64,000 nt of DNA from Alphaproteobacteria bacterium (GCA_965227515.1 CBDDFZ010000001.1:3936001-4000000); one strand, 5' to 3'. Shown: positions 5,256-63,683, numbered from the stretch's first letter. The notes: generated from the letters alone by a model not told the origin. A program made the numbers and translations.

Positions 5256-5305
5256 AACTGCCTTTCGATGTCATGACCGGCACTGTTTCAAAGCAAAGCA
5301 TTGTT

Positions 5306-5481: not shown

Positions 5482-5512
5482 GAGTTTGAGGATGGGGCAT
5501 TGGCGGCTGTCC

Positions 5513-5989
5513 CTAATACGCGCTTGGATCGAACTTCTTCTCGTACAGCGTCCAGGCGGTCTTGGTGGCGATGCGGTCATAGACCCCGCGCGCCCGGTAG
5601 TTCAGGTCGTGGGTGATCCAGCGGATCACCGGCCAGCCGCGCCGCTGGCCGATCTCGTAGACCGCCTCCATCAGGCGGTCGGCGGCGCCGGACCCGCGCA
5701 CGTCGGGGCGCACGAACAGGTCGTCGATGAAGCCGGCCTCGGTGGCGCGCAGCGGGCTCGGCATCACCCGGAAATGGACCAGCCCGATCAGCCCGCCGTC
5801 CCGCGCCGCGACCAGCCCCTCGAACGGATAGGCCGGATCCATCAGCCAGCCCCACACCACCTCCTTGCCGGCGGCGTCGATCGGCGAGTGATAGAAGTCG
5901 GCATAGCCCTGGTAGAGGTCCATCCACGCGTCGTGATGGTCCGCGGTGACCGGGGTGATGGTGAGATCACCTGCCGCAGCAGTGTTCAT
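5513..5989 (-). CDS. GNAT family N-acetyltransferase
   Basis: DDLFVRPDVRGSGAA acetyl-CoA motif; WITHDLNYRARGVYD. Confidence 0.9.
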   Translation of the reverse strand: MNTAAAGDLTITPVTADHHDAWMDLYQGYADFYHSPIDAAGKEVVWGWLMDPAYPFEGLVAARDGGLIGLVHFRVMPSPLRATEAGFIDDLFVRPDVRGSGAADRLMEAVYEIGQRRGWPVIRWITHDLNYRARGVYDRIATKTAWTLYEKKFDPSAY

Positions 5990-6020
5990 AGTGTCCTCCG
6001 AAATCTCTCAACCCAAAATC

Positions 6021-6049
6021 GTCATGGTCGGGACAAGCCCGAGGATGAC
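6021..6049. repeat. Single/collapsed REP unit (family B)
   Basis: GTCATGGTCGGGACAAGCCCGAGGATGAC resembles the right arm of the elements at 12779 and 14041. Confidence 0.7.
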
Positions 6050-6075
6050 GCCTGAGAGTGGCATTGGGCCGGGCG

Positions 6076-30925: not shown

Positions 30926-31009
30926 GATGTGTTCCTCCGTTGCCCGCGCCATGCGGGCGGTGATGGGGTGCGCATCCGGGCCGATTGCCCGCAGCGCGTC
31001 GTTGGGGTG

Positions 31010-31055
31010 AATATCGGGGCAGCAGCGCCGCGGCTGTATGGGGTCGATGCCCCAA
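31010..31055 (-). promoter_or_regulatory. Conserved promoter module (second copy)
   Basis: AATATCGGGG at 31010 and ATGGGGTCGATGCCCCAA at 31038-31055. Confidence 0.65.
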
Positions 31056-31146
31056 TCTTTGCGGCTGCCAATTCCGCAATCCGCCCGGATGCTCTAAAAG
31101 CAATGCGCAAGGCGCCGACAAAGGCGGCGGAGGGAGGACTACCGGA

Positions 31147-41012: not shown

Positions 41013-41414
41013 CTATTCCGCTTCGGCGGTCCGCTGGTTGCGAATGTTGCGCTCCGCCATGGCGGTCAAGGTTTCGCGCATGCGGTTCTTGAAGCCCTGA
41101 AGGTGCGTCATCGACACGACGCACAGGATCGTCAGGGGGATCAGCAACATCACCCTCACCGGCATCGGCAAATTGATCGCGAACATGGCCAGCAGCAGCA
41201 CGATCGCAATCGGTAGCGCGATCCAGTTGATCGTGTCGTACTTGCGCTTGAAGTCCGGATACGCGGCGCTGAATGCGCGTGTGGCCTCAGGACCGGAGAG
41301 ATGGCTCCTGCAATCGGATGGGACACCCGCCAGCACGCGGTTGAACAGCCTGCGCTCATAGCCTCTGAGCTCGACGGCCAGGGTTTCGTTTTCTCGCATA
41401 TCGAGCGCTTGCAT
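41013..41414 (-). CDS. Hypothetical membrane protein (two TM helices)
   Basis: ATG at 41414 after a strong GAGGAGG; hydrophobic hairpin. Confidence 0.6.
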   Translation of the reverse strand: MQALDMRENETLAVELRGYERRLFNRVLAGVPSDCRSHLSGPEATRAFSAAYPDFKRKYDTINWIALPIAIVLLLAMFAINLPMPVRVMLLIPLTILCVVSMTHLQGFKNRMRETLTAMAERNIRNQRTAEAE

Positions 41415-41551
41415 ACCCACCTCCTCAGTCAATCCGGCTGAAGGTAGGACGCTTCTGGCTCGATGGAGGTTCATCTCATCGCCTAGTTGCGTATGACGCC
41501 GCGATTGCTCAGTCTCCCATGGACGAGCGGTAAAGTTAGGGAGGAGGACCC

Positions 41552-41770
41552 ATGCTGCAAACGGTCGTTGCCGTGATTCTTCTGTGTTTTGGCGAACAGT
41601 GTGAGCTGTTGAAAGGCTACCCGCTGTCGTTCGGCAGCCTGGAGGATTGCAAGGGGCACATTGCGGAGATGACCGCGTCGGCCATCCCGGCCGTCGATGC
41701 CAAAGGGACAATCATGACCTTCTGCACGGAGCATTTCGAGATCGTCGAAGGGACCATCATGGCCCTGTAG
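41552..41770 (+). CDS. Small 4-Cys hypothetical protein
   Basis: Strong RBS GGAGGAGG; hydrophobic N-terminus; C-x4-C...C...C pattern. Confidence 0.6.
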   Translation: MLQTVVAVILLCFGEQCELLKGYPLSFGSLEDCKGHIAEMTASAIPAVDAKGTIMTFCTEHFEIVEGTIMAL

Positions 41771-44052: not shown

Positions 44053-46764
44053 TCAGGTGATCTGGAAGCCGATGCCGCCGTTCTCGTCGGCGGTCAGCGC
44101 GATGGTGCTGATCGGCTCGTTATCCGCCATGCGGCCCAGCACCTGGGCGGAGATTTCCGGCAGGATGGTGCCGGTCAGGATATTATCGATGTTACGCGCG
44201 CCGGCATCGCTGTCGGTGCAGCGCTCGGCCAGCGCCTTCACCACCTCGTCGGAATAGGTGAAGTCGGCGCCATGGTTGGCCTTGATGCGCTTGACGATCT
44301 TGTTGAGCTTCAGGCGCGTGATCATGTCGAGCATGCTCTCGTCCATCGGGTAGAACGGCACCAGCACCATGCGGCCCAGCAGCGCCGGCTTGAACTTCTT
44401 GTTCAGGTCCGGGCGAATCGCCTCGATGATGTCGTCCGGCTCCGGTCGCTCGGCGCCGCGACCGCACATCGACATGATGGTGTCGGTGCCGACATTCGAC
44501 GTCAGGATGATCACGCAGTTCTTGAAGTCGATCTCGCGGCCCTCGCCGTCCTCCAGATTGCCCTTGTCGAACACCTGGAAGAACAGCTCCATCACGTCCG
44601 GGTGGGCCTTCTCCACCTCGTCCAGCAGCACCACCGAATAGGGCCGGCGGCGCACCGCCTCGGTCAGCACGCCGCCCTCGCCATAGCCGACATAGCCGCG
44701 CGGCGAGCCCTTGAGGTTGGAGACGGTGTGCGCCTCCTGGTACTCGGACATGTTGATGGTGATGATGTTGCGCTCGCCGCCATAGAGCAGATCGGCCAGC
44801 GCCAGCGCCGTCTCGGTCTTGCCGACGCCGGACGTGCCGACCAGCATGAACACGCCGATCGGCTTGCCGGGATCGTCCAGATTGGCGCGTGCGGTGCGAA
44901 TGCGGCGCGAGATGATGTCCAGCGCGTGGTTCTGGCCGATCACCCGCTTGCCCAGCGTCTCGTGCAGCGTGAGGACCGACGTGATCTCGTCCTTCACCAT
45001 GCTGCCGAGCGGAATGCCGGTCCAGGCCGACAACACCTCGGCGATGGTCGCACCGGTGACGGTGGTGTAGACCAGCGGCGTCTCGCCCTGCAGCGCCTCC
45101 AGCTGCGCCGTGAGCTCGGCCATCCGTTCGGCCGACGCGGGCTCGGCGTCGCTGTCCTCGCCCGCCGCCTCGCCCCCTTCGGCGGCCTCCGCCGGCGCGC
45201 CGGTGTCGGCGCTGCCAGCCTCGACCTCGGCCGCGGTCACCGGCGTCTGGCCCGGCACGCCTTCCAGCTCGCTGCGCATGCGGTCCAGCTTCTCGACCAG
45301 CGCCTTCTCGCGGGTGAACTTGTCCTGGAAGTTGGCCAGCTCGCTGGTCAGGTTGGCGGTCTCTTCCTCCAGCGCGGCGATGGTGTCGGCGTGGTCGACG
45401 CCGATCTTCTGCTCGCGGCGGAGCACGTTGAGCTCCACGTCCAGCGCCTCAAGCCGGCGGGTGATGTCCTCGATCGCAGCCGGCGTGGAGTTCTGCGAGA
45501 TCTTCACCCGCGCGCATGCGGTGTCGAGCAGGCTGACCGCCTTGTCCGGCAACTGGCGCCCGGCCAGATAGCGGTTGGACAGCCGGACCGCGGCGTCGAT
45601 GGCCTCGTCCAGCACCCGCACCTTGTGGTGCTTCTCCATGGTGTCGGCGACGCCGCGCAGCATGATGATGGCGCGCTCTTCGTCCGGCTCCTCCACCTTC
45701 ACCACCTGGAAACGGCGGGTCAGTGCCGGGTCCTTCTCGAAGTACTTCTTGTATTCCGACCATGTGGTGGCCGCGATGGTGCGCAGTTCGCCACGGGCCA
45801 GCGCCGGCTTCAACAGGTTGGCGGCATCGCCCTGCCCTGCCTGGCCGCCGGCACCGATAAGGGTATGCGCCTCGTCGATGAACATGATGATCGGGTCGGG
45901 GCTCTTCTTCACCTCGTCGATCACCGCGCGCAGCCGGCGCTCGAACTCGCCCTTCACGCTGGCGCCGGCCTGCAGCAGGCCCAGGTCCAGGCTCAGCAGG
46001 GTCACCCCGTGCAGGATTGGCGGCACGTCGTCGTTGGCGATGCGCTGGGCCAGCCCCTCGACCACCGCCGTCTTGCCGACGCCGGCCTCGCCGGTCAGGA
46101 TCGGGTTGTTCTGGCGGCGGCGCGACAGGATGTCGACCATCTGGCGGATCTCGGCATCTCGGCCCAGCACCGGGTCGATCTCGCCGGCCTTTGCCCGCTC
46201 GGTCATGTTGATGGTGTACTTGCCAAGCTCGCCCTTGCCGATGGTCGACGGGCCCTTGCCCTGCGCCGCCTCGGCCGCCGCGCGATCGGATTCGACCGAG
46301 CCGTCGGTGATGTTCTCGAAGTCGGTCTTCAGCTTGTCGGTGTCGATGGCCCCGAAGATCGGCGAGATCGTCTCCAGGATGATGCCCAACTCCGTGCTCT
46401 GCAGGCCTGCGAGCAGCAGGTGGCCGGAGCGCATCGCAGGCGCCTCCAGCTCGACCGACGCCAGCTTCCACGCGCCCTCCAGCATCTGTTCAATGCGGCC
46501 GGAGAATGAGGGGATGCCTGTGTTGCCGGCCTTGTGGTTCCCCAGCGCCTTGTCGATATCGGCGCGCAGCCGGTCCTCCGACTGGTCGAACGCGCGCAGA
46601 ATGCGGTGGATGTCGGTATCGTCGCGCTCCAGCAGGGCGGCGAAGATGTGGGTGATGTCGGCTTCGTAGTGGGTGCGCGCCTTGCAGATCGAGGCAGCCT
46701 CGCCGAAGGACTGCATGCAAACCGGGTTCAGTCGCTTGATCAGCGATTGCAGGGACGAAGCCAT
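44053..46764 (-). CDS. tssH: T6SS AAA+ ATPase ClpV
   Basis: LQSLIKRLN, RRRQNNPILTGEAGVGKT, LLQAGASVKGEFE, second Walker A GTSGVGKT, NMSEYQEAH. Confidence 0.96.
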   Translation of the reverse strand: MASSLQSLIKRLNPVCMQSFGEAASICKARTHYEADITHIFAALLERDDTDIHRILRAFDQSEDRLRADIDKALGNHKAGNTGIPSFSGRIEQMLEGAWKLASVELEAPAMRSGHLLLAGLQSTELGIILETISPIFGAIDTDKLKTDFENITDGSVESDRAAAEAAQGKGPSTIGKGELGKYTINMTERAKAGEIDPVLGRDAEIRQMVDILSRRRQNNPILTGEAGVGKTAVVEGLAQRIANDDVPPILHGVTLLSLDLGLLQAGASVKGEFERRLRAVIDEVKKSPDPIIMFIDEAHTLIGAGGQAGQGDAANLLKPALARGELRTIAATTWSEYKKYFEKDPALTRRFQVVKVEEPDEERAIIMLRGVADTMEKHHKVRVLDEAIDAAVRLSNRYLAGRQLPDKAVSLLDTACARVKISQNSTPAAIEDITRRLEALDVELNVLRREQKIGVDHADTIAALEEETANLTSELANFQDKFTREKALVEKLDRMRSELEGVPGQTPVTAAEVEAGSADTGAPAEAAEGGEAAGEDSDAEPASAERMAELTAQLEALQGETPLVYTTVTGATIAEVLSAWTGIPLGSMVKDEITSVLTLHETLGKRVIGQNHALDIISRRIRTARANLDDPGKPIGVFMLVGTSGVGKTETALALADLLYGGERNIITINMSEYQEAHTVSNLKGSPRGYVGYGEGGVLTEAVRRRPYSVVLLDEVEKAHPDVMELFFQVFDKGNLEDGEGREIDFKNCVIILTSNVGTDTIMSMCGRGAERPEPDDIIEAIRPDLNKKFKPALLGRMVLVPFYPMDESMLDMITRLKLNKIVKRIKANHGADFTYSDEVVKALAERCTDSDAGARNIDNILTGTILPEISAQVLGRMADNEPISTIALTADENGGIGFQIT

Positions 46765-46965: not shown

Positions 46966-47358
46966 CTAGGGGACCGTGGTCTGGACTTGGCCGGGATTGA
47001 GGATGGAGATCACCCCGCCGTAGGAGCACATGCACTGGCAGGTGTTGTCGAGCGCAGGCATGTTGCCGACCATGGTCGTCGCCTCGCCGGGCACCCAGGG
47101 GCTCGCGGTCGCCGGCACACAGGGCATCGGTGTCAGCACGCCCAGTGCCGCCGACGTCGCCGAGGCCACCGTCGGATTGCTGACCGTCGTGCACATGCCG
47201 AACGTGGGGATGTTGGTGATCGGCGCGAAGTCCATGATGTTGGCCGACAGCATGTTGCCGCATATCGGCCGCGTGGGGTCGGTCACGATCAACGTGGCGG
47301 GTGCGACGCCGAAGGAGCATTGCATCGTCGCCCCCATCACCACTTGCAATGCCGCCAT
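46966..47358 (-). CDS. DUF4280 PAAR-like spike-tip protein
   Basis: GATMQCSFG, NIPTFGMC, NPTVASAT, PCVP, W.PG, CMCSYGGVISI. Confidence 0.85.
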   Translation of the reverse strand: MAALQVVMGATMQCSFGVAPATLIVTDPTRPICGNMLSANIMDFAPITNIPTFGMCTTVSNPTVASATSAALGVLTPMPCVPATASPWVPGEATTMVGNMPALDNTCQCMCSYGGVISILNPGQVQTTVP

Positions 47359-47408: not shown

Positions 47409-48800
47409 CTACTGCACTTGCGCCAGGAATGCCGCGCGTTCCTTGTCATTGGGAATGTGCTCGGCCAGCTTCTCGCATAGCTCCTTGAAGCTGCCGGCGG
47501 TCGGCACCGCGCGCTTGACCATGACCTTGGCGATCGGGCCCAGGTGCACGGCCAGCGCGCGCTGCGCGCGCACGATCTCGTCCGGCGATATGCTGACCGC
47601 AGCCGGTGCGGCCGCCGGGGCGGCAGCGGCCTGGGCCTTGGCCGCCGCACCATTGCCGCGCGACAGGAAGGACTCGCGGTCGTCCGCGTTCTGGATCGAC
47701 GTCGCCACCGTGCGATAGAGCGTGCCCAGGTCCTCGGTCTGCTTGGCCGCCTGCTCCACCACCACCTTGGCCACCGGCCCGATGTGGTAGGACAGCGCCT
47801 CGGCCACCTGGCGCAGCGTCTCCTCGTTGCGGATGCCGGTTTCCTCGGTCGGGCTGGCCATGAATGGGCTGCTGTCGTCGGCCTGCCCGCTCGGCGCAGA
47901 CGGCGCGGTCGGGCGCGGCGGCGCCTGCATCAGCACGGTCGCGTCGTCCATCGCTGGCGCGGTCGCCTCGGCCTGCAGCAGCATCTGCTTGAACTCGGCC
48001 GCGGTCGCGAACCGGTCGTCCGGGTTGCGCGACAGCGCCTTCAGCACCACCGCGTTCATAGCGATCGGCAGCGACGGGTTCAGTTCCGTCACCGGGCGCG
48101 GCGCGTGGTTCAGCAGCTTGTACATCACCTCGGTGGCGCGCTTGCCGGGGAACGGCTTGTGGCCGGTCAGCAGCTCGAACAGCACCACGCCGGCGGAGAA
48201 AATGTCGGTCCGCTTGTCGATGTCCTGGCCGGTGAACTGCTCCGGCGACATATAGCTGGGGGTGCCGACCACCGAGCCGTGCGCGGTCATGCTGGTGGAA
48301 TCGATGCGCGCGATGCCGAAGTCGGCCACCTTCACCCGGTCGCCCGGCAGCAGGATGATGTTCGCCGGCTTGATGTCGCGGTGCACGATGTTGTGGGCGT
48401 GGGCATAGTCCAGCGCGTCCAGCACCTGGCCGACGATGGCGACGGCCTTGTCGCGCTCCAGCACCTTCTGGCGCTTCAGCACGTCGGCCAGTTCCTCGCC
48501 CTCGATGAACTCCATGGCAATGTACGGCGCGTCGTCCTGCTCGCCGTATTCGAACACGGTCACGATGTTCTGGTGCAGGCAGCGGCCGGCGGCCCGCGCC
48601 TCGCGCCGGAAGCGCTGCAGCCACTCCTCGGCCTCGTCGCCGGACAGCAGGTTCCGGTGCACCATCTTGATGGCGACGTGCCGGTCGATGCCAGGGTCGT
48701 AGCCTTTGTAGACCATGCCCATGGCGCCGCGCCCAAGCAGCTTCTCCACCTGGTAGCGCCCGATCGTCTCGATCGTCATGTTTTCCTGATCCGCAGCCAT
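47409..48800 (-). CDS. Soluble Hanks-type Ser/Thr kinase (PpkA position)
   Basis: LGRGAMG, VAIK, HRDIKPAN, DFG, GTPSYMSPE; no TM segment; duplicated C-terminal helical domain. Confidence 0.92.
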   Translation of the reverse strand: MAADQENMTIETIGRYQVEKLLGRGAMGMVYKGYDPGIDRHVAIKMVHRNLLSGDEAEEWLQRFRREARAAGRCLHQNIVTVFEYGEQDDAPYIAMEFIEGEELADVLKRQKVLERDKAVAIVGQVLDALDYAHAHNIVHRDIKPANIILLPGDRVKVADFGIARIDSTSMTAHGSVVGTPSYMSPEQFTGQDIDKRTDIFSAGVVLFELLTGHKPFPGKRATEVMYKLLNHAPRPVTELNPSLPIAMNAVVLKALSRNPDDRFATAAEFKQMLLQAEATAPAMDDATVLMQAPPRPTAPSAPSGQADDSSPFMASPTEETGIRNEETLRQVAEALSYHIGPVAKVVVEQAAKQTEDLGTLYRTVATSIQNADDRESFLSRGNGAAAKAQAAAAPAAAPAAVSISPDEIVRAQRALAVHLGPIAKVMVKRAVPTAGSFKELCEKLAEHIPNDKERAAFLAQVQ

Positions 48801-48890
48801 ACTGCTATCCGGCTCCCATACATGCATTCGTTGCGCCGGGCCGCCCACCGGGCCATGTCGGCACGGCCCCGGGCGGAAGGCGCAGTATTC

Positions 48891-49769
48891 CTAGTCGTCC
48901 AGCATCTTCATGGCGTTCTCAAGGCTACGCCGCATGCGGTTGAACGACGTCGACAACGACGCGATTTCGTCCTTGCCGGTACGCGTGTATTCCTCGACCT
49001 CGCCGTCGCCCAGGCTCACCCGTTCGGCGATGTTCGCAATCTTCAACACAGGCTTTATGACGACGAACTGCAAGATCAAGTTAATCAAGATCAAGACGAG
49101 GATGAAAACGCTCGCCAGCGCCACCATGATCACCAGGAACACCGTGCGCGCGCGCTCCAGCGGCACCGACATCGGCACCGTCACCATCTGGGCCGCGATC
49201 ACCTCGCCAACCTCCCAGCCGAACCCGTTCTGGTCGCCATAGAGGTCCAGCATCGCCGGCGGCGCAACGTCCGGCGTCGAGTGGCACGAGGAACACTCCG
49301 CCGACATCCGAATCGGCCGCGCCAGCACAAGGCTGGGGCCGTTCTCCGTATCGCGCTGGGCGATAATCTCGCTCAGGTTATCGTCGTCGATGAACTGGTT
49401 GATGATGGCTGCCTCGTAGTCGTCGGCCAAGTCGTCGACCACATTGGTCGGGTTGAGCGACGCCTCGCGATAGCTGAAGGCGGGGAAACTCTCCTGCACG
49501 TCGCGGAAGATCTGGCGGGCCGGCACGGTGGGCACCGACAGCGGCAGGAAGTTGCCGGTCTGCTCCATCATCACCCGCAACAAGGGGCTGACGTCGTCGC
49601 GGATGTGCGCCCGCACGGCGGTTGCCTGCTCCATCATGATCTGGGCGTTGAGGATGACCTCCTCGCGGGCGTTGTCCTCGGCGATGCGATAGGACAGGAA
49701 CCCGGCCAGGGCCAAGCCGATCACGAATGCCAGTATCAGCACCATATTGAACTTGGTGCGCAGCCCCAT
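48891..49769 (-). CDS. DUF3365/Tll0287-like haem-c sensor with HAMP, no output domain
   Basis: TM1; periplasmic YREASLNPTN, LARPIRM, CSSCH, YGDQNGFGW; TM2; HAMP IKPV...DEIASLSTSFNRM; then stop. Confidence 0.85.
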   Translation of the reverse strand: MGLRTKFNMVLILAFVIGLALAGFLSYRIAEDNAREEVILNAQIMMEQATAVRAHIRDDVSPLLRVMMEQTGNFLPLSVPTVPARQIFRDVQESFPAFSYREASLNPTNVVDDLADDYEAAIINQFIDDDNLSEIIAQRDTENGPSLVLARPIRMSAECSSCHSTPDVAPPAMLDLYGDQNGFGWEVGEVIAAQMVTVPMSVPLERARTVFLVIMVALASVFILVLILINLILQFVVIKPVLKIANIAERVSLGDGEVEEYTRTGKDEIASLSTSFNRMRRSLENAMKMLDD

Positions 49770-49937
49770 CGCGTCAGTCTCCTTGCGGTATGCCTAGTCG
49801 AACGGCCACGTCGCGGCCGCGCATCAACTCGCGGTAACCATACCGCACAACACCTGCCGAATTCTTTCCTGGCACGAATTTTTGTCCGGGCCTACGTGCC
49901 CGAGACCTCGGGAACGGGCGCGCCAATCAGGCGCCCG

Positions 49938-49979
49938 AACTCCCTATGGAGAGCTCCCTAGGGGCAACTCCCTATGGAC
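49938..49979. repeat. Three 14-bp tandem repeats
   Basis: AACTCCCTATGGAG / AGCTCCCTAGGGGC / AACTCCCTATGGAC, overlapping the phosphatase stop codon. Confidence 0.7.
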
Positions 49980-50727
49980 CGCCCCCAGGCAGCGCGTCCA
50001 CCACCACGGCGGTCACGTTGTCCCTTGCGCCCCCGTCCAGGGCCGCGTCGATCAATGCATCGGCCGCCGCCTCCGGAGGCTTTGCGGCCAGGATGGCGGC
50101 AATCTGCTCGTCGCTGGCCAGTCTGGTCAGCCCGTCGCTACATAGCACAAATCGATCGTTGGGACCCAACTCTCCGGTCGCCACGTCCAGGTCCAACGCA
50201 TGCTCGGTGCCCACCGCCCGGGTCACCACGTTGGCGTAGGGGTGGCTGTTAGCCCGCTCCGGCGCCAGCATGCCGCCGTCGATCAGCTCCTGCACGTAGC
50301 TGTGGTCGTGGGTGAGCTGCGATATGCCGCCGTCGCGCGCCAGATAGATGCGGCTGTCGCCCGCCCAAAGGCACGCATAGTGGCGCTGAAATGCCATCAG
50401 CACGACCACGGTGCTGGCAATCACGGTGCCGGGCCCGCGCTCCACCGCCGCCTGCTGCAGCGTGGTATGGGCCGCCTGCAGCCGCGCCTTGATGTCCTGC
50501 ATCAGGTCGCGGGCCGATGTCGGCGGCGCCGTCGCGGTCAGGTTCTCGACGATCAGGTTGCTGGCATAGTCGCCGGAGGTATGCCCGCCCATGCCGTCGG
50601 CCACCGCCCACACGCCGATGTCGTCGCGGGCCATGAAGGCGTCCTCGTTGTAGGGCCGCACCTTGCCGCAGTGCGTGCGCCCGCACGAGGTGAACACGAA
50701 AGCGCCGGGCTGCATGGTCGTGTCCAC
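49972..50727 (-). CDS. pppA: PP2C Ser/Thr phosphatase (PppA)
   Basis: RPYNED, VADGMGGH, WAGDSRIY, LCSDGL, GARDNVT. Confidence 0.92.
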   Translation of the reverse strand: MDTTMQPGAFVFTSCGRTHCGKVRPYNEDAFMARDDIGVWAVADGMGGHTSGDYASNLIVENLTATAPPTSARDLMQDIKARLQAAHTTLQQAAVERGPGTVIASTVVVLMAFQRHYACLWAGDSRIYLARDGGISQLTHDHSYVQELIDGGMLAPERANSHPYANVVTRAVGTEHALDLDVATGELGPNDRFVLCSDGLTRLASDEQIAAILAAKPPEAAADALIDAALDGGARDNVTAVVVDALPGGGP

Positions 50728-50740
50728 GTACCGTCCGCCC

Positions 50741-51499
50741 TTATCGCACGCTCAGCCGGATCGCTTCGGCGCGATCGGGTTTGTTGTCCCAGCCCCACTT
50801 CGACCAGTTGCCGTCCAGGAAGGCGGCAAAGCGGTCGGCGGTGGGCAGGCCGCGGCAGGCCAGGAACACCGGGTCCACCTCCTCCGACCCCATGGTCCAC
50901 CACAGGCTGTAGGGGTTCAGGGTCCAGGCCAGCGTGCGGTCCAGCATGTCGGGATAGGCGAGTTGCAGGTCGTCGCCCCCGCCCAGGTCGATGCGCAGGC
51001 TGTCCGGGCCATAGCGCGCGCCGTTGTCGGCCTGGCCCACGCCGACGCCGGGCGTCAGGCACCCGTCGGGCAGCCCGATGTCGCGCACCGCCGCGTCGAG
51101 CACCGAGATCTCGAACGCCTCCTCCAGCGAGGCCAGGATGGCGCATTCCGCCTTCCAGTACCAATCGCCCTCGGTGGCGGCGACGATGGCCGGGCGGACG
51201 TGCGCCGGCACCACGGCGGCCAGCGACAGCGGGAAATAGCGCCCGACCTTGTCGACGCTCGGCATCATCACGCCGACCGCCGGGTGCGGCCCGCAGATGT
51301 CGCCGGAAATGGCGAACCGCCACACCGGGCTGGTCAGATAATACTTCAGCCAGTCCTGCCCCAGGTCGGTGCGGCTGCGGTCGATGGCGGTCTGCAGCCA
51401 CGCATCCCATGGCCGCAGGAACGTCTCCGCCAGTCCGTTGCGAATGAAGTCGCCCGTCAGCGGCACTTTGCCGAAATATCCGCAGCCTATGCGATCCAT
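50741..51499 (-). CDS. tagF: T6SS post-translational repressor TagF
   Basis: GYFGKVPLTGDF, WDAWL, SPVWRF, PSVDKVGRYFPL, SLWWT. Confidence 0.92.
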   Translation of the reverse strand: MDRIGCGYFGKVPLTGDFIRNGLAETFLRPWDAWLQTAIDRSRTDLGQDWLKYYLTSPVWRFAISGDICGPHPAVGVMMPSVDKVGRYFPLSLAAVVPAHVRPAIVAATEGDWYWKAECAILASLEEAFEISVLDAAVRDIGLPDGCLTPGVGVGQADNGARYGPDSLRIDLGGGDDLQLAYPDMLDRTLAWTLNPYSLWWTMGSEEVDPVFLACRGLPTADRFAAFLDGNWSKWGWDNKPDRAEAIRLSVR

Positions 51500-51504
51500 C
51501 GATT

Positions 51505-54500
51505 TCACAGCGTGGTTGGACACCTGAAATCCTTCAGTTCCGGCAGCAGGAACGGGTTGCGCACCGTTGCCGCAGTCACTTCGAATGTCACCGACCGTTC
51601 GCCCACCGTCAATGTCGCGTTGACCTTTTCCGGCTGGGCGGTCGCCGTGGTGGTGCCTTCCAGCACATGGAACCACGCCCACGGGCCCTCCACCGTCGTG
51701 CCGTTGGGCTGACCTTCCAGCGAAGGCGTGAACGACAGGTTGACGCCGGCCGGCCCGTCCGGTCCGGGCCACTGGTAATCGGCCGGAATCTGCGGCCCGT
51801 GGCTGTAGCTGAACTGCGGCTGGCCATCGATGGTCAGCAACACGCGGTTGGCGGTCTGCGACAGTTCCACCGGCAGCAGGGTGAATTTGACCAGGGGGGT
51901 CGCACTGCTGCCGAAGAAGACATCGCGGATGGTCGCCGCACGCTCGAATTGCGCCAGGGCCGCCGACGACAGCCCCAGGCTGACGGTGCCTTCCTTCCAT
52001 TTCCAGGGCGACACCGAGATGTCGGCGTGCGGCGCCAGCGATTCGGTGAAGAACTTGTCCAGCAACTGGCCGGGGCCGAAGATGCGCGCGAAATCGTCCA
52101 GGGTGACATCGGCCGGCGCCGTCGCCTCGAACGGGTAGCGCCCGCCGATCGCCGCATCGCATTCCGGCTTGATGGTGGTGAGGTAGCTGTCGCGCAGGTC
52201 GCTGCGCGCGCCGCCGGCACTGGCGCTCTCGGAGCCGGCGATGACCTCGGCAACCAGGCCCGCCACCGGCTCCGGCAACGCCGCACTGCTGCTGTCGAGC
52301 TGCTGTAGCGCCTGGGTCAACTCGGCCGGAATCGTCGACCCGCCGGCACGGGCCGCCGCATTCAGCCCCTGATAGACCGCGCGCATGTCGGACAACACGT
52401 CGTCGATTCCCGGCGGCTGGCCATCGGCGCCGAACACCATGTCGTGCAGGTCCTCGAACTGGTCGTTGACGAACTGGCCCGGCTGCGGCGCGGCATTGGC
52501 GGCCGGCTGGCTGACGCCCGGAATGCCGTCCCCGCCACCGGCATCGCCGCTGCCATCGCCGCTGCCGTCGGCGGCTCCGTTGCCTGCCGCCGCGCCATCG
52601 CCGCTGGCGCCGTCCGCCGGGGCCGGCGCCGGGCGCACCAGCATGGTCTGGTTGGCCACCGAGGTCAGGAACTCCTTCAACGGCGAGCCCGCGCCCGACA
52701 ACACGTTCAGCACGTCACGCGCATCGTCCAGGTTGGTGATCGGGCGCACCGCCACGTCGTTCAGCAACTGGTCCCACTTGAACACGTAGTCGTCGACGTA
52801 GAGGCCGATCACGTCGTCCTTGAAGCCGTCGAGCAGGGCCTGGGTGGTGGCGTCCGGCGCGTCGTCGATGAAGACGAAGCTCTCCGCGGCGATCTCCTGG
52901 GCAATGCGGTCGAGCGCCGGCAGCAGAACGTTGTGAAAGCCCTCGTAGGTGTAGAAGCCCTCGATGCCGGACCGCAGCGTCGCGCCCGAACGGCGCACCA
53001 GCACCCGTTCCGGCGACGCCCCGGCGTTGTCCGAAATCCGCCACTCGCGAATGTTGCGGGCGGCCGCACTGCCGCGGATCGAGTCATAGGTGGCGCCGGC
53101 CAGCCCGGTCAGGTCCAGGTTCGGCCGTGCCGCCTGCACCAGCCCCTCGTCCAGGGTGAAGTTGAAGCTGAGGCCCAGCGGGTCGTTCAGCAGCGCGTCC
53201 AGATGGGTCTGCAGATGGCTGCGCAGGGTGGCGTTGTCGTCGCCGGGATAGAGGTCCGCCCAGTCCGATTGCATCAGCCGCTCGATCTGATCCGGGACGA
53301 GCGTGCCGCGCCCGCCCAACATCAGGTAGGCGCGCATGTAGCGGTAAAGGTTCTCTTCGTTGTCCAGATTGTCGCGGATCTTGTCTTCCAGGTGCAGGAA
53401 CAGGCGCGGCGCCAGCAGGTTGTTGAGCGCTCGGCGATACGACGCATTGGCCGCCGTGCCGAGCTTCTCGCCCTGGTAGAGGCCGAAGGTGTATTCCAGC
53501 GGCGGGTCGTCCAGCGGATCGCCGACGGCACCGGGCAGGCCGCGCACGATGTCCAGCAGCGGCGAGACCTTGGCGAAGTCGGTGTCGCTGACAGCTTCGG
53601 TCTCCACGTCGGCCAAGCCGGCGTTGTAGCGCTCGACCCCTTCCTCGGCCTCCTCCACCAGCTCCATGTTGTTGAAGTAGCTCCACGTCCAGCCGCCCAG
53701 CACCGCCAGCGTTAACAGCGCCAGCGTGGCGTAACCGGTGCGGCGCACCCAGACCCGCCGCTTCTCGCGCGCCGGTTCCACGCTGGCCAGCTCGGCCTCC
53801 GGGAACGCCACATTGCGCAACAGCCGGGTGACGAAGTAGCTGCGGCCGCCGCCGCTGAACGCCGGCAGCGCGCTACGGCTGACCCCGAACCGGGTGGCGA
53901 GCGCGCCCATCATGCGGTCGATGGGGGTGCCTTCCTGGGTGCCGCTGGTGAAGTAGACACCGCGCAGCAGCGGCTTCTCCTCAAACTGGCTGGGGCGGAA
54001 CACCGCGTCCAGGAAGTCCTGCAGCAGGTCGCGCAGGGAGGCCATCTGGCTGGGGAAGCCATAGATCAGCGCCCGGCGCTGAACGTCGATCTGACGATGG
54101 ACCTTGTCGAGCAGCCGGTCGTTCAACCGCTCCATCAACAGGTCGTACTCGCGGTTGAAGGTGGCCGCCGTGCCCTCCGCCGCGCGGTCGTTGTTGCCCA
54201 GCGGGAAGGTCATGCCCCAGACCTGCTGGCGCTCCTCGCGCCCCAACTCGTCGAAGAACTCGATGAAGCCGGCGATCAGGTCGCACTTGGTGAACAGCAC
54301 ATAGATCGGGAAGCGCAGCTTGAAGCGGGCGTGCAGCTCATTGATGCGGGCACGGATAATACCGGCGTGCTCGGCCCGCTCCTCCTCCGACATCGCCATC
54401 ACCTCGTTGATGGCGAAGACGATGAAGACGCCGTTGATCGGCCGGCGCGGCCGGTTGCGGCGCAACAGGTCGAGGAACCCGCCCCATGCCGCCTGGTCGA

Positions 54501-55110
54501 CCCCGGCGCGCGCATCCTGGGTGGTGTAGCGCCCGGCGGTGTCGATCAGCACCGCCTCGTCGGTGAACCACCAGTCGCAGTTGCGGGTGCCGCCGACGCC
54601 GCGCACCGCCTCGTTGCCGAGCTGGTCCTGCAGCACGAACCGCAGGCCGGACTTGACCAGGGCCGTCGTCTTGCCGGAACCCGGCGGGCCGATCAGCATG
54701 TACCACGGCAACTGGTAGAGGTAGCGCCGGCCGAAGCCGCGGCCGAACTTGGCCTTCTTCAGCAGCACCATCGCCTGGCGCATGCGGTCGCGCAGGGTCA
54801 GCACCTCCTGCGCCGAAAGCTCGGCCTCCTCCGCCGACGCCTGGGCATCGGCGGCGGTGTCCAGTTCCTCCACGATCATCGAGTTGCGCCGCTGCGCCCG
54901 GACCAGCGAGACGAACACCACGATGATGAAGATGACGAGGATGACCAGAACCGCGATCAGGCGGTTGGTCAGGTCCTCCAGCGGATAGGAGTCGCCGATC
55001 GGCACGTAGCGCAGCACGTACCAGACAAGCAGGCACGCCAGGATCACGCCGATGACCGACCAGAACCACGGCCACTTGATCAGCCGCACCAGTGCCGACA
55101 GCACCTTCAT
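51505..55110 (-). CDS. tssM: T6SS membrane complex TssM/IcmF
   Basis: LYQLPWYMLIGPPGSGKTT, GTRNCDWWF, DTAGRY, LRGVYFTSGTQEG, GRYPF. Confidence 0.96.
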   Translation of the reverse strand: MKVLSALVRLIKWPWFWSVIGVILACLLVWYVLRYVPIGDSYPLEDLTNRLIAVLVILVIFIIVVFVSLVRAQRRNSMIVEELDTAADAQASAEEAELSAQEVLTLRDRMRQAMVLLKKAKFGRGFGRRYLYQLPWYMLIGPPGSGKTTALVKSGLRFVLQDQLGNEAVRGVGGTRNCDWWFTDEAVLIDTAGRYTTQDARAGVDQAAWGGFLDLLRRNRPRRPINGVFIVFAINEVMAMSEEERAEHAGIIRARINELHARFKLRFPIYVLFTKCDLIAGFIEFFDELGREERQQVWGMTFPLGNNDRAAEGTAATFNREYDLLMERLNDRLLDKVHRQIDVQRRALIYGFPSQMASLRDLLQDFLDAVFRPSQFEEKPLLRGVYFTSGTQEGTPIDRMMGALATRFGVSRSALPAFSGGGRSYFVTRLLRNVAFPEAELASVEPAREKRRVWVRRTGYATLALLTLAVLGGWTWSYFNNMELVEEAEEGVERYNAGLADVETEAVSDTDFAKVSPLLDIVRGLPGAVGDPLDDPPLEYTFGLYQGEKLGTAANASYRRALNNLLAPRLFLHLEDKIRDNLDNEENLYRYMRAYLMLGGRGTLVPDQIERLMQSDWADLYPGDDNATLRSHLQTHLDALLNDPLGLSFNFTLDEGLVQAARPNLDLTGLAGATYDSIRGSAAARNIREWRISDNAGASPERVLVRRSGATLRSGIEGFYTYEGFHNVLLPALDRIAQEIAAESFVFIDDAPDATTQALLDGFKDDVIGLYVDDYVFKWDQLLNDVAVRPITNLDDARDVLNVLSGAGSPLKEFLTSVANQTMLVRPAPAPADGASGDGAAAGNGAADGSGDGSGDAGGGDGIPGVSQPAANAAPQPGQFVNDQFEDLHDMVFGADGQPPGIDDVLSDMRAVYQGLNAAARAGGSTIPAELTQALQQLDSSSAALPEPVAGLVAEVIAGSESASAGGARSDLRDSYLTTIKPECDAAIGGRYPFEATAPADVTLDDFARIFGPGQLLDKFFTESLAPHADISVSPWKWKEGTVSLGLSSAALAQFERAATIRDVFFGSSATPLVKFTLLPVELSQTANRVLLTIDGQPQFSYSHGPQIPADYQWPGPDGPAGVNLSFTPSLEGQPNGTTVEGPWAWFHVLEGTTTATAQPEKVNATLTVGERSVTFEVTAATVRNPFLLPELKDFRCPTTL

Positions 55111-56438
55111 CGCGGCGCCACCACTTCAATGTCGACACGGCGGTTCTTGGCCAGATCGGCGGGGGTGGTCGCGTTCTCGACCACCGGGTCGGCGTCGGCC
55201 CGGCCCTCGGCACTCAGCCGGGTCGGGTCCATGTACTCGGCCAGGATGTCGACGACCGAGGTCGCGCGGGCCTGGGACAGCTCGAAGTTGGACGGGAACT
55301 GGATGGTGCGGATCGGCACGCTGTCGGTGTGGCCAACCACCAGGATGTTGCCCTGCACCGTGCCCAGCGCGTCGGCAATGCGCTTCCAGATCGGGTCATC
55401 GTCGTTCGCGACCCGGGCCGACCCGGTGCCGAACATGCCGTCGGTGCCGATGCGGATGGTGACCTTGCGGTCGTCGCCGAACACCTCCACCTGATTGGCC
55501 GCAATCTCCGGCGCCAGGAACTGCTGCAAGGTTTGCAGCGTGGTCGGCGGCGGCGGGGTGTCGGGCACCGCCGGCGTCGGCGACACGGGCGCAGCCGGCG
55601 GCTCCGGCCGGACCAGGGTCACGTCGTCGCGCGGCTCAAGCTGCACGATGCTGCGGAAGGTCGGGTCGGACTCCTCGCCCAGGATCAGGCTGAAGATCCA
55701 GAAGCCGGCGACCAACAGGGCAATCGAGATCAGGATCGCCACCCACAGCGGCACCGGCGCACGTGAGCCGCTGCGCGACGCGGTCACGCCCTCCCAATGC
55801 GGCGACAGCTCGCTCTCGTACTCGCCACGGCGGCGGCGGATCAGCCGGTGCAGCGCGTCGCGGATGCGGGTCAGTTCCGCCGCCCCGTTGGGCAGCACCC
55901 GCAAGCGCCCCTCGAAGCCCAGCGCCAGGCACAGGTACATCAGCTCCAGCGCCGCGAAGTTGCGCTTGGTGTCGCGCTGCATGTGGTCGAGCAGGGTATA
56001 GAACCGGTCGCCGCCCCACGCCTCGCGGTGGAAGGTGGTGACCATGCCCCGCTTCGACCAGTTGCTGGCCCCGCCCCACGGCGTGTTCAGCACCACGTCA
56101 TCGACGGTCGCGCACAGCGCATATTGTCCGGCACCGACCACGCGCGGCTCGATGCCAGCGGCAATCGCGCGCCGGGTGAACTGCTTGATCTCGTCGATCA
56201 GCTGGCGGCGCAGTTCCTCGACATTGGCATGCCGCGCGGTGTTGCGGATGCGGTTGATCAGCGCCAGCAGCGGCGACGCCTCGGTCACCAGGGGGTTGAT
56301 GCCCGGATGGCGCGGCAGCGGTGGGGTCGCCGGCTGGGCCGCGCGCATGCGTTCGGCCGCGCGCCGGCCGCCGGGACTTGGCCGGACGATGGTCGATTCT
56401 GTATCGCCGTAATCGGCGAAGGGGTCGGCCCCGCTCAT
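55107..56438 (-). CDS. tssL: T6SS TssL/DotU with C-terminal OmpA peptidoglycan-binding domain
   Basis: YALCATVDD, TPWG, LCLALGFEGR; TM; VGHTDS, NFELSQARA, NRRVDI. Confidence 0.95.
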   Translation of the reverse strand: MSGADPFADYGDTESTIVRPSPGGRRAAERMRAAQPATPPLPRHPGINPLVTEASPLLALINRIRNTARHANVEELRRQLIDEIKQFTRRAIAAGIEPRVVGAGQYALCATVDDVVLNTPWGGASNWSKRGMVTTFHREAWGGDRFYTLLDHMQRDTKRNFAALELMYLCLALGFEGRLRVLPNGAAELTRIRDALHRLIRRRRGEYESELSPHWEGVTASRSGSRAPVPLWVAILISIALLVAGFWIFSLILGEESDPTFRSIVQLEPRDDVTLVRPEPPAAPVSPTPAVPDTPPPPTTLQTLQQFLAPEIAANQVEVFGDDRKVTIRIGTDGMFGTGSARVANDDDPIWKRIADALGTVQGNILVVGHTDSVPIRTIQFPSNFELSQARATSVVDILAEYMDPTRLSAEGRADADPVVENATTPADLAKNRRVDIEVVAPR

Positions 56439-58553: not shown

Positions 58554-60164
58554 TCACCGAAGTTTCTTTGACTGCTCTTCATACGCTTCTGAGAACTGTT
58601 TCGTAAAGAACTCATGAAACTCGGATTCTGCGTCTCCGGCGATGGACGCATAAAAGTCGCAGAACAATTCCCAGTACTTCGATTTTCGTGCCGCCGGCAA
58701 AAGATTGCCCAGCATCGAGCGTTCTTCCAGCCGCTGCTCCAGGGCCTTGGGGTCGAATTTCTCCAACAGCCGGCGCAGCGCCAAGTGCATGGCGGCCATC
58801 GTCGCCATCTGGTGGGCCTGAATGTCTTGGAATCCCTGGTCCACCGCCTCGGTCGGGCTCAGGAAACCGCCGCCCGGCTGGCGCAGCATGGCGACAACCG
58901 CCTCGTCCTCCGACAGGCCCAGTTTCAGGGGGTTGTTGCTGGTGCGCCCGATCATGGTGCGCGAGACGTCCAGCTCGTCCTTGATCTCGGCGCGGGTCGC
59001 CAGCGCCTCCTGCAGGCCGGCCACCAGCCTGCGAAACACGTGGCCGGCATCCCGCATCAGCTGGATGGCCTGGTCCTCGGACAGCTTCATCCGGCCGAGA
59101 CCCGCACCCTCCAGGAACACACGCAATGCCGCCGCATCGGCAACGCCCCCGCCACCGGCAGACGCCGGCTGCGGCTGCGGTGCCGCCGGGCGCGGCTGAG
59201 CTGGCGGCGCAGGCTGCGCGGGCGGCGGGTCCGACGGTGCCAGGAACGGCGACGCGGTCTCGTCCGGCGGTGCGTCCAGGTCCCCGCCCAAATCCGCGCC
59301 CATGTCCGCGCCCAGATCGTCCAGGTCCCAGTCGTCCGGAATCGCGCCTGCATCCGGCTTCTGCTCAGCCGTGACCTTGGGCGGCGTGAACTGCTGGTTC
59401 TGCGACGGCACGTCGTCGGGCATCGGCGGCTGGTCCCACGCCTCGCCAATCTCGTCGTCGCCGTCGTCGAACGGGTTCAGCCCGCTATCCTGGCCCAGGC
59501 TGCCGGCCTTGGCGTAGAGCGTCCCTTCCGGCCCATGCGGCAGCAACGATTCGCCGCTTTCACGGTCGCCCGCATCGTCGAAGTCGTCCAGCGGCAGCGG
59601 CGGGCCGGATGCGCGATGCTGCGGCGGCGACCCGCCGGAACGCCGCGGCGGGTCGTCGAAGGGATTGACGTCGACCCCCAGGTCCGCGCCGACGTCTTCG
59701 AAATCGTCGTCGTCGCCGATGCCGAACGGATCGTCAGCGGCGGCAGCAGGCTTCGGCGCGCCGCCACCGAAAGGAGACGGCGCCACCATGGTGCTGTCGG
59801 AGTCCGCCGCCCCGGCCGGGACGCCCGCGCCAGCCCCGCTGCCCTCGGCAATCTCAGCCACCAGCTCGTACTCGCCGATGCGCAGGCTGTCGCCCGGGTT
59901 CAGCGCCACCGTCTGGTCGCGGCCCACCCGCTCGGCCGCGCCGTTCATGAACACCCCGTTGGCGCTGGTATCGGTCAGCGTATAGGCACCGCCGCCGCCC
60001 TCGATCCGACAATGCCATTTCGACAATTGGCGCGCGCTGTCGGCCAGCACCAGGTCGTTGTCCGGCGCACGCCCGATGGTGATGCTGCCTTCGTCCAACT
60101 CGACGCTGCTCTCGAACCCGGGCGGGACCGCACCAGGATCGACGATGGATATCCGTAAGGTCAT
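58554..60164 (-). CDS. tagH: T6SS FHA protein TagH/Fha
   Basis: FHA IGR...SKWHC...DTSANG; acidic/Pro linker; NNPLK, DIQAHQMA, FSEAYEEQ. Confidence 0.93.
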   Translation of the reverse strand: MTLRISIVDPGAVPPGFESSVELDEGSITIGRAPDNDLVLADSARQLSKWHCRIEGGGGAYTLTDTSANGVFMNGAAERVGRDQTVALNPGDSLRIGEYELVAEIAEGSGAGAGVPAGAADSDSTMVAPSPFGGGAPKPAAAADDPFGIGDDDDFEDVGADLGVDVNPFDDPPRRSGGSPPQHRASGPPLPLDDFDDAGDRESGESLLPHGPEGTLYAKAGSLGQDSGLNPFDDGDDEIGEAWDQPPMPDDVPSQNQQFTPPKVTAEQKPDAGAIPDDWDLDDLGADMGADLGGDLDAPPDETASPFLAPSDPPPAQPAPPAQPRPAAPQPQPASAGGGGVADAAALRVFLEGAGLGRMKLSEDQAIQLMRDAGHVFRRLVAGLQEALATRAEIKDELDVSRTMIGRTSNNPLKLGLSEDEAVVAMLRQPGGGFLSPTEAVDQGFQDIQAHQMATMAAMHLALRRLLEKFDPKALEQRLEERSMLGNLLPAARKSKYWELFCDFYASIAGDAESEFHEFFTKQFSEAYEEQSKKLR

Positions 60165-60382: not shown

Positions 60383-60964
60383 TCACCCCGATCGCCCGTC
60401 GCCGCCATCCGCGATGTTGGCCGCCTGGGCGAGGAATCGCTTGAATTTCGCCTCCGCCTCCTCGGCCTCGGGCTGAACCGCGGCCAGCATGACCGAACCG
60501 AACACGGCGGTCGCGGTCATGGTCTCGGCGGGCTCCACCGCTGGCAGGTCAGGCTGTGAGATGCTGCCGCCGCTCCAGAACGCGCCGGCCGCGGTCCAAT
60601 GCGCGGCACGATTGAACTCGGTCGCCTCGGCCAGCTCCATTGCCGCACGCCGGTTCTTGTCGGTCGGGCGATAGACCCAGGCTTCGCTCGCCTTGATGAT
60701 CTCGGCGTCGGCGGGGTCCGGCGGCTTCGTCAGCGACTGGCGCGCGCAGGTGCACGCCCACCACACCGCTTCTCGCTTCGGCAGCGCGTAGGCAAACACC
60801 TTCAGCGCGTCCGGCCACATCTCCTCTTCCACCAGCTTGGCGATCAGCGACTTGATCGGCGCCCGTTCGACGATCAGCGGCTTCGCCTCGTCGGAAAAAT
60901 CCGCGACCGCCGCAACGTCGCCGGCGGTATGCATGGTGAACTTCTTCAGGCTGCCGAGCTGCAT
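60383..60964 (-). CDS. VgrG-associated conserved protein (DUF6931-like)
   Basis: AYALPKREAVWWAC, AWVYRP, AAGAFWSGGS; directly downstream of vgrG. Confidence 0.7.
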   Translation of the reverse strand: MQLGSLKKFTMHTAGDVAAVADFSDEAKPLIVERAPIKSLIAKLVEEEMWPDALKVFAYALPKREAVWWACTCARQSLTKPPDPADAEIIKASEAWVYRPTDKNRRAAMELAEATEFNRAAHWTAAGAFWSGGSISQPDLPAVEPAETMTATAVFGSVMLAAVQPEAEEAEAKFKRFLAQAANIADGGDGRSG

Positions 60965-63203: not shown

Positions 63204-63683
63204 TTAGACCGACTTGCCAGTCGAAATGTCAAAGCCCTTGGTCTTCGGATCGCCCAGCGTACCGTCCACCTTGCGCTCGGTATTGGTAATGCTGATCTTG
63301 GTGAAGTTCAGGCTGATCGACTCAGAGGGCTGGTCGCCGCCCGAGGACGCTGAATAGCCGCTGATCAGCACGTTCTCCAGCGTAATCACCAGGTACTTCT
63401 CGCCCGGGTCGCCGGTCTGGATGAACGTGAATTCCGCCTTCATGCCGGCTTCCTTGCCGACGCAGGCCGACGCGAACAGCTCGGTCGAGCAGTTGTCCAG
63501 CGACTTGGTGAAGGTCACTTCACTGACGCTGGCATTGGATGACTCACGGCTCAGGGCGGAACCGGTCGGCGTCATGATCGATCGGCCGACGCCGAACTGA
63601 ATGCTGTTGCACTCAATTTGCTTCTCATAACCCGACGTGGTGACGTTTCCCTCGTACTTGCCCAGCTTCAAATAGATTGGCAT
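63204..63683 (-). CDS. hcp: T6SS tube protein Hcp
   Basis: IYLK, SEVTFTK, YLVITLENVLISGYS, PSESISLNFTKI. Confidence 0.95.
   Translation of the reverse strand: MPIYLKLGKYEGNVTTSGYEKQIECNSIQFGVGRSIMTPTGSALSRESSNASVSEVTFTKSLDNCSTELFASACVGKEAGMKAEFTFIQTGDPGEKYLVITLENVLISGYSASSGGDQPSESISLNFTKISITNTERKVDGTLGDPKTKGFDISTGKSV

Follow-up and report, generated by a model that had tools for sequence, protein, structure and literature searches.

A 64,000-nt stretch of an alphaproteobacterial genome (GCA_965227515.1, CBDDFZ010000001.1:3936001-4000000; hereafter the window, in whose positions all coordinates are given) carries genes of a type VI secretion system (T6SS), and among these lie two adjacent genes for a membrane receptor with a haem-c attachment motif and for a soluble Ser/Thr kinase. 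At the level of sequence, this pair resembles the recently described CHH receptor and its cognate kinase, and we propose, with a probability of about 0.68, that it is the sensor and kinase through which signals enter the T6SS threonine-phosphorylation pathway here, in the place that membrane-bound PpkA, with TagQRST or RtkS, takes in other T6SS. The pair would thus probably set when the T6SS fires, as the first-pass annotation of this DNA had suggested. We base the T6SS assignment, and with it our support for that earlier suggestion, on synteny, on the presence of a single kinase in the genome, and on genome-level co-occurrence with TagH. The concept of a split receptor, also put forward in that annotation, is correct, but is already contained in two 2026 preprints; what would be new is that the outputs of the CHH-kinase module include the T6SS phosphorylation switch, where the membrane part of PpkA would give way to a haem-c/HAMP receptor.

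The sensor (292 aa; 48891-49769, minus strand, as are all genes of interest here) is composed of a first transmembrane (TM) segment, a periplasmic Cache_heme/Tll0287-like domain, a second TM segment, and a cytoplasmic HAMP domain, without any output domain. Residues 32–199 match the Tll0287-like/DUF3365 family of Pfam (PF11845, E 7e-34), the HAMP domain covers residues 237–284 (48918-49061, minus strand; PF00672, E 2.6e-07), hydropathy places the TM segments at residues 3–30 and 204–247, and the protein ends 8 residues past the HAMP match. Its only two cysteines, C159 and C162, both belong to the haem-c attachment motif CSSCH (C159/C162/H163; 49281-49295, minus strand), and all 163 aligned CHH-like sequences share the C, C, and H of this CxxCH motif. 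Profile searches with DUF3365 and HAMP, proposed earlier as a check, hydropathy, and the sequence itself therefore bear out the original description of a 292-aa protein with a CSSCH domain between two TM segments, two cysteines in all, and a HAMP domain at the stop codon. Stand-alone Tll0287 proteins (cluster 1), which are soluble, consist of a single domain, and ligate haem by Cys/His, are a poor fit, as the sensor has TM helices and a HAMP domain and lacks a third cysteine, and its match to 5b82 is weak (E 0.008). Conversely, it has all the hallmarks of a CHH receptor, i.e., a CxxCH Cache_heme domain, flanking TM segments, a terminal HAMP domain, and, as in signalling cluster 2 and unlike Tll0287, no distal cysteine.

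The adjacent gene encodes a PknB-like Ser/Thr kinase (479-aa open reading frame (ORF); 47409-48848, minus strand) with a clear Pkinase match (E 5.8e-55), PknB as the nearest solved structure (E 2.8e-55), and the motifs VAIK58, HRD156, and DFG176 all present. No hydrophobic segment was found (maximum 19-residue Kyte-Doolittle mean of 0.99), in agreement with the first description of this gene as a Hanks kinase devoid of TM or periplasmic parts. The gene call of the collection itself (P0302) begins at Met24 (nt 48779), which yields a protein of 456 aa. The C-terminus consists of two repeats, 36% identical to each other over 47 residues (E 1e-09), at about residues 340–400 (47649-47831, minus strand) and 420–479 (47412-47591, minus strand). 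Each contains an IGPxA[RK] helix, HIGPVAKVVVEQ at residue 356 and HLGPIAKVMVKR at residue 436, and these match, respectively, IGPLARFLVRKSLN and IGPIARIVVSRALR, the helices through which the published kinase contacts HAMP. The protein thus combines the features of a CHH partner, i.e., a PknB-like kinase domain, no TM or PASTA part, and two C-terminal IGPxA[RK] repeats, and differs from PpkA (TagE) in lacking a TM segment and in ending in a HAMP-docking-type repeat pair. These features suggest a kinase that would act like PpkA but is not a member of the PpkA family. A structure prediction for two copies of the HAMP region (residues 205–292) with the kinase C-terminus (residues 335–479) scored 0.30 against a mark of 0.32, and counts neither way.

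The kinase-type C-terminal repeat, which carries the precomputed label PF26309.1, also occurs on non-kinase proteins. It was observed on a cyclase-like protein whose gene immediately follows a CHH gene (L048:10881-11987, plus strand), as well as on P0330 (with a Guanylate_cyc domain), P0335 (TIR), and P0314 (580 aa, no other domain). This distribution suggests that the repeat is a portable adaptor, which would let output-less HAMP receptors recruit different effectors. In a relative, P0316 (69% identical over the matched part), a partial kinase with one repeat is fused to DUF4280, either as a genuine fusion or through a merger of gene calls. The search for fused receptor-kinase versions called for in the first-pass annotation returned one, P0235 (588 aa), in which a TM segment, a Cache_heme domain (CSYCH), a second TM segment, a Pro/Ala-rich linker, and a Ser/Thr kinase follow one another, with no HAMP domain. 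It was seen once, as a single protein from one 1992-nt contig.

The family to which we compare this pair was defined in two preprints from the Crane/Zhulin laboratories (Deshpande et al., 2026), cited here for their main texts. The first renames DUF3365 "sCache_heme" and describes a Pseudomonas azotoformans protein of TM-Cache_heme-TM-HAMP layout, without output domain or distal cysteine, that binds haem c with His/OH- ligation, lets go of nitric oxide (NO) slowly, like H-NOX and NosP, and autoxidises fast (bioRxiv 10.64898/2026.02.01.703092). This ligation, together with the lack of a distal cysteine, fits an early remark on the window sensor, namely that its distal haem site should be either open or Met/His-ligated. 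The second names the protein CHH receptor, and reports that a TM-less PknB-like kinase gene is almost always adjacent to it, often along with a PP2C gene (bioRxiv 10.64898/2026.05.25.727664). According to the same source, the two C-terminal helical bundles of the kinase bind HAMP with nanomolar affinity, independently of ligand and ATP, and the helices IGPLARFLVRKSLN and IGPIARIVVSRALR touch HAMP in a 3.47 A cryo-EM structure. The kinase phosphorylates Thr256 of HAMP, and NO raises this phosphorylation, while oxidation or reduction alone shifts it far less, and no stable O2 complex is formed. Its authors allow for a haem ligand other than NO, call the downstream output unknown, and suggest biofilm, quorum sensing, or metabolism (10.64898/2026.05.25.727664). 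Control of a soluble kinase in trans by an output-less haem-c/HAMP receptor, as first envisaged for the window, has therefore been reported for a homologous pair, with which the window kinase shares the IGPxA[RK] helices.

By every sequence criterion tested, phospho-acceptor excepted, the window pair is a member of the CHH receptor-kinase family, in a comparison that rests on the published motifs and description of the P. azotoformans pair, not on its full sequence. The two pairs have in common the receptor layout, a kinase free of TM and PASTA parts with two IGPxA[RK]xxV repeats, and a PP2C gene in the cluster. They differ in that the window pair is alphaproteobacterial, while the main texts of the preprints name gamma- and betaproteobacteria, and in that it is surrounded by T6SS core genes as well as tagF, tagH, and clpV. 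In addition, the PP2C gene (pppA) is upstream of the pair in the window and downstream in P. azotoformans, and the window sensor, with Ser252-Leu253, may lack the published phospho-Thr. Compared to H-NOX and NosP, the CHH receptor is likewise a stand-alone haem sensor steering a separately encoded enzyme, with similarly slow NO off-rates in the P. azotoformans homologue. However, H-NOX and NosP are cytoplasmic haem-b proteins with histidine kinases or cyclic-di-GMP enzymes as partners, whereas CHH receptors are periplasmic haem-c proteins, coupled across the membrane to a Hanks kinase.

Profile matches of the Pfam/TIGRFAM type place the pair within a single minus-strand series of genes, hcp-vgrG-DUF6931-tagH-tssJ-tssK-tssL-tssM-tagF-pppA-sensor-kinase-DUF4280-clpV, and the T6SS locus goes on past the window's end with tssG, tssF, tssE, two tssC, tssB, and tssA. 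Upstream of the sensor lie tssM (51505-55110, minus strand; TIGR03348, 1176 bits), tagF (50741-51499, minus strand; TagF_N E 4.7e-43, TIGR03373 E 2.1e-43), and pppA, for a PP2C Ser/Thr phosphatase (49972-50727, minus strand; PP2C_2 E 5.1e-16, and Stp1_PP2C_phos E 1.2e-59 with a score of 201.7 bits, under the 230-bit curated cut-off), followed by a 202-nt spacer (49770-49971). Downstream of the kinase come a DUF4280 gene (46966-47358, minus strand; PF14107, E 1.1e-32), whose product we take to be PAAR-like, and clpV (44053-46764, minus strand; AAA_2, AAA_lid_9, and ClpB_D2-small). The pair is thus inside a tagF-pppA-kinase module, with tagH in the same locus and all features at the coordinates first assigned to them. 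Between 46700 and 51600, a scan for sigma-70-like promoters returned 0 sites, and terminator-like sites were not commoner than in shuffled sequences. As noted from the outset, TagQ/R/S/T-like genes are not seen: there were none among the window ORFs scanned with Pfam, although no genome-wide search was aimed at TagQRST.

The genome of the organism (5.52 Mb, 2 contigs, 99.67% complete) includes exactly one Tll0287-like match and one Pkinase match, both in the main T6SS locus. Since TagH, PppA, and TagF make sense only along with a kinase, and the genome has a single one, we conclude that the pair is likely to feed the T6SS. Two FHA proteins were found, TagH and one other. Full-length TssC matches are confined to the T6SS locus, and a third, partial VipB-like match is located elsewhere (G000:C1:312653-313162). 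CcmE, which takes part in haem-c maturation, is also present, so that haem-c maturation is possible.

We next evaluated the distribution of CHH genes and T6SS genes across related genomes, as the first-pass annotation had recommended for output-less DUF3365-HAMP proteins, TM-less kinases, and tss genes. We took the 80 loci that scored best for similarity to the window sensor out of 566 confirmed relatives. In 70 of these, the next gene downstream, in the same orientation, encodes a kinase domain, and counting neighbours on either side raises this to 73. Of the 80, 7 have T6SS core genes no more than 10 kb from the CHH gene (5/33 among loci whose two flanks are complete), and these follow at least three distinct layouts. 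L001 is window-like, L002 and L053 have tssC-C-B-A divergent from caspase/PG-CHH-kinase, and L009, L014, and L034 have CHH-kinase-vgrG-DUF6931-tagH; L057 is the remaining T6SS-linked locus. The TagH C-domain was detected in 37/80 CHH genomes, including 16/16 for L001-L016, the loci ranked nearest the window protein. A quick maximum-likelihood tree (IQ-TREE) was built for 81 CHH proteins, and it groups the window with 99% support in a clade of 31 rows, of which 8 are T6SS-linked, 17 have TagH elsewhere in the genome, and 6 have neither, while TagH accompanies 13 of the other 50 rows, mostly Betaproteobacteria. Four loci of proteobacterial CHH-kinase type come from metagenome-assembled genomes (MAGs) labelled Anaerolineae (L005), Mycobacteriaceae (L020), Streptomyces (L039), and Enterobacteriaceae (L055). 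L005 and the alphaproteobacterial L004 have identical CHH proteins, and the four cases are likely binning or label errors.

A sample of 401 genomes from the window's class, which offers no beta- or gammaproteobacterial baseline, included TagH in 19, CHH in 10, and both in 7. TagH was hence found in 7/10 CHH-positive vs 12/391 CHH-negative genomes, and the three genomes with CHH but without a TagH match are all fragmented MAGs, 79%, 87%, and 93% complete. Another kinase is encoded 1–30 kb from tagH in 7 of the 12 genomes with TagH and no CHH; five of these seven ORFs are 655–778 aa long, as expected for PpkA, and the other two 367 and 473 aa. All three genomes of this sample that belong to the window's family have CHH at a distance of about 9 kb from tagH, and their only kinase adjoins CHH.

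Several observations weigh against this reading or narrow its reach. No T6SS genes were found within 10 kb in 73 of the 80 CHH-kinase loci, and 43 of the 80 CHH genomes are without a TagH match, many of them being incomplete MAGs. The locus and genome counts include kin, without phylogenetic correction. The T6SS is, on this distribution, one output of the CHH module, in the window's clade, and not that of the whole family. Three genomes (G350, G149, and G012) have CHH plus a second, longer kinase near tagH, so that the role of T6SS kinase does not have to fall to the CHH kinase in every genome. The HAMP connector begins V251-S252-L253-G254, where the residue after the near-invariant serine (column 252 is Ser or Thr in 160/163 relatives) is Leu253 in the window sensor, and Thr in 46/163 relatives. 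If the published Thr256 corresponds to column 253, phosphorylation of the receptor at that site would be impossible here. Finally, NO as the ligand is proposed by analogy to one homologue studied in vitro.

Three other explanations were weighed. The CHH-kinase-PP2C genes may form an autonomous cassette, serving for instance biofilm or nitrosative stress, that merely landed in the T6SS locus, so that firing would be independent of it. The scarcity of nearby T6SS genes and the very varied neighbours of CHH loci would be expected in that case, and the preprint's own suggestions of biofilm, quorum sensing, or metabolism (10.64898/2026.05.25.727664, main text) point the same way. We nonetheless regard this as unlikely: the phosphorylation switch implied by TagH, PppA, and TagF would be left without a kinase, as the pair includes the only Hanks kinase of the genome, and the kinase is likewise single in the three genomes of the same family. 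TagH is also strongly enriched in CHH-positive genomes, and the pair is flanked by pppA and DUF4280/clpV in the same orientation, without a strong predicted terminator. It is about as improbable that the pair feeds the T6SS with a haem that senses redox or O2, or with a receptor that mainly serves as a membrane anchor replacing the TM segment of PpkA, without ligand gating. The haem-c Cache or PAS-like proteins GSU0582 and GSU0935 are thought to be redox sensors (10.64898/2026.05.25.727664, main text), and the homologue's fast autoxidation and its kinase binding regardless of ligand and ATP would both suit such a role. However, redox changes alone were far weaker than NO in that homologue, O2 formed no stable complex with it, and CxxCH and the periplasmic domain are strictly conserved over the 163 sequences, which argues for a sensor in use.

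The third explanation, under which the sensor would be a truncated histidine kinase or the split an artefact of sequencing or assembly, is effectively refuted. Close relatives of the sensor domain are indeed fused to HisKA/HATPase, GGDEF, or SpoIIE, and the Joint Genome Institute (JGI) labels some 290-aa homologues 'protein-histidine pros-kinase'. Yet among the 120 best of 4975 homologues at E <= 0.001, nearly all are 286–304 aa long, the 13 aligned share the sensor's C-terminal end, and the downstream gene is a complete kinase. Moreover, a contig from a second sequencing run of a related strain (X2, about 98% identical) spans 47877-50800 with 51 substitutions, and its single indel is an 18-nt insertion in the pppA-sensor spacer, with none in either gene. 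Both frames are kept in this contig, which speaks against the sequencing error, fusing or truncating the genes, that had been named beforehand as a possible flaw.

The reading we favour, that the CHH pair stands in for PpkA, can be set against the characterised threonine-phosphorylation pathways. PpkA has an N-terminal kinase domain, a TM segment, and a periplasmic domain. The window shares with the H1-T6SS of Pseudomonas aeruginosa a Hanks kinase, a PP2C phosphatase, an FHA protein, and TagF beside the core genes, i.e., the components of a post-translational on/off logic (PMC10482370). It differs in that the H1 PpkA is a membrane-associated kinase activated via TagQRST (PMC10482370), while the window kinase is TM-less, its membrane and periplasmic counterpart being encoded separately as a haem-c/HAMP protein, and there is no TagQRST-like gene among the Pfam-scanned window ORFs. 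In Agrobacterium, PpkA phosphorylates Thr14 of TssL, Fha binds the phosphorylated TssL, TagF-PppA is encoded alongside, and the imp operon ends with ppkA, after tagF-pppA (PMC3953482). Gene order is the same up to the kinase slot (tagH/fha..tssL..tagF-pppA), except that tagF and pppA are separate genes in the window, and the slot held by a single ppkA in Agrobacterium is occupied by CHH and the soluble kinase.

Components of this pathway found in the locus are an FHA protein with phosphothreonine-binding residues, PppA, and TagF. TagH/Fha (536 aa; 58554-60164, minus strand; FHA E 5.2e-14, T6SS_FHA_C E 3.5e-57) keeps G31-R32 and S48-x-x-H51 in its FHA domain, with R32 and S48 corresponding to R30 and S46 of the Agrobacterium protein, and has a linker motif S124-T125-M-V-A-P-S-P (..STMVAPSPFGG..). 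TssL with its OmpA-like domain (55107-56438, minus strand; DotU E 8.8e-68, OmpA E 3.6e-10) has an N-terminal extension with T13, S15, and T16 (..DTESTIVRPSPGG..; ..STIVRPSPGG..), and this N-terminal motif is also found in L001. A pattern [ST]-T-[IM]-V-x-P-S-P followed by a Gly-rich stretch is thereby present in both TssL (residues 13–22) and TagH (residues 124–131), and a relaxed form of it has 6 occurrences in all six frames of the window. We treat this shared motif as a lead rather than a finding, its residues being candidate kinase or FHA sites by analogy with Thr14 of Agrobacterium TssL. On the receptor itself, S252 is a candidate phospho-acceptor by analogy with Thr256 of P. azotoformans. 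P0201, with Ser255-Thr256, was considered as a near stand-in for the P. azotoformans receptor and dropped, since it comes from Methylacidiphilales.

Taken together, these elements suggest how the switch could operate. The Ccm system would attach haem c to C159 and C162 in the periplasm with H163 as the proximal ligand, and the receptor would form a dimer, both as expected from family membership. The two C-terminal repeats of one kinase would then clamp the HAMP bundle, as shown for the homologue and as the conserved repeat motif suggests here, and keep the kinase at the membrane. A diatomic ligand, most likely NO, for which there is in vitro precedent in the homologue, would bind the open distal haem site, and the signal would cross the membrane to alter HAMP conformation and kinase output. 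By analogy with the known pathway and given the gene content, the kinase would phosphorylate a T6SS component that TagH recognises through its FHA domain, with T13, S15, and T16 of TssL, T125 of TagH, and the HAMP connector as candidate targets. Phosphorylation would promote assembly and firing, PppA would reverse it, and TagF would restrain it. Overall, a haem-ligand input, probably NO, to the T6SS threonine-phosphorylation switch appears most likely, where ligand, target, and effect on firing are those that we infer. Because the organism's genome has no NirS (Cytochrom_D1) match and only NirK-model matches far under cut-off, as expected for multicopper oxidase-like proteins, it probably makes no NO by denitrification, and an NO cue would be external, probably from neighbours or the host.

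Few triggers of T6SS phosphorylation switches are known, namely TagQRST (membrane damage), RtkS, and, in Agrobacterium, where the activating signal is unknown, an "unknown protein" (PMC10482370). The locus and its relatives propose a joint answer to the questions of this trigger and of the CHH pair's output, in the form of a periplasmic haem-c gas sensor driving assembly. If true, contact-dependent antagonism would take one of its cues from NO that denitrifiers, algae, or hosts release. Searches of the literature returned no link between a DUF3365, Cache_heme, or HAMP-haem receptor and type VI secretion, and the term "Cache_heme" was met only in the two preprints. The main texts of both have 0 occurrences of secretion, T6SS, TagF, FHA, or PpkA; their supplements, including the gene neighbourhoods in Fig. 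S1 of the May preprint, are outside this scope. Two T6SS reviews (PMC10482370, 2023; PMC13584744, August 2026) mention neither HAMP nor heme, and the latter is also without Cache, nitric, or DUF3365. Cultured relatives exist, including Virgifigura deserti (L002, T6SS-linked) and Zoogloea ramigera (L029), and the system has simple read-outs in Hcp secretion, phosphorylation of TagH and TssL, and the response to NO donors.

A broader and more speculative proposal, which we hold only tentatively and consider rather doubtful, is that the CHH receptor is an unrecognised accessory component of the T6SS. Periplasmic NO, or another haem ligand, from neighbours or host would then gate firing, and the phosphorylated receptor, or the T-[IM]-V-x-P-S-P sites of TssL and TagH, would dock the FHA domain of TagH, so that the apparatus would assemble at the activated receptor. 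Beyond the T6SS, the repeated helical module of the kinase could be a portable HAMP-docking adaptor, through which output-less receptors would recruit interchangeable effectors in trans.

Among the remaining features of the locus, hcp (63204-63683, minus strand) and vgrG (60979-63051, minus strand) are followed by a DUF6931 gene between vgrG and tagH (60383-60964, minus strand), and DUF6931 also accompanies vgrG and tagH in L009, L014, L034, and L057. The T6SS locus has two adjacent full-length tssC paralogues (L089:3368-4792 and 4948-6441, both minus strand); Agrobacterium presumably also has two. Just beyond the window's end, and divergent from tssA, lies a gene for a caspase-like protein of 802 aa with Peptidase_C14, Big_9, PG_binding_1, and MORN domains (L089:8730-11138, plus strand). 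Its tblastn matches adjoin the CHH gene in 12/80 loci (L002, L010, L020, L021, L024, L032, L033, L053, L056, L057, L062, and L078), with or without nearby T6SS genes, and a shorter homologue was confirmed in L021 (361 aa, with caspase and peptidoglycan-binding domains). This caspase/peptidoglycan-binding protein may be a periplasmic partner of the CHH module. Elsewhere in the window, two ORFs have no Pfam match: one of 232 aa (41013-41711, minus strand), and one of 722 aa (30985-33153, plus strand) with a coding-like GC content at third codon positions (GC3).

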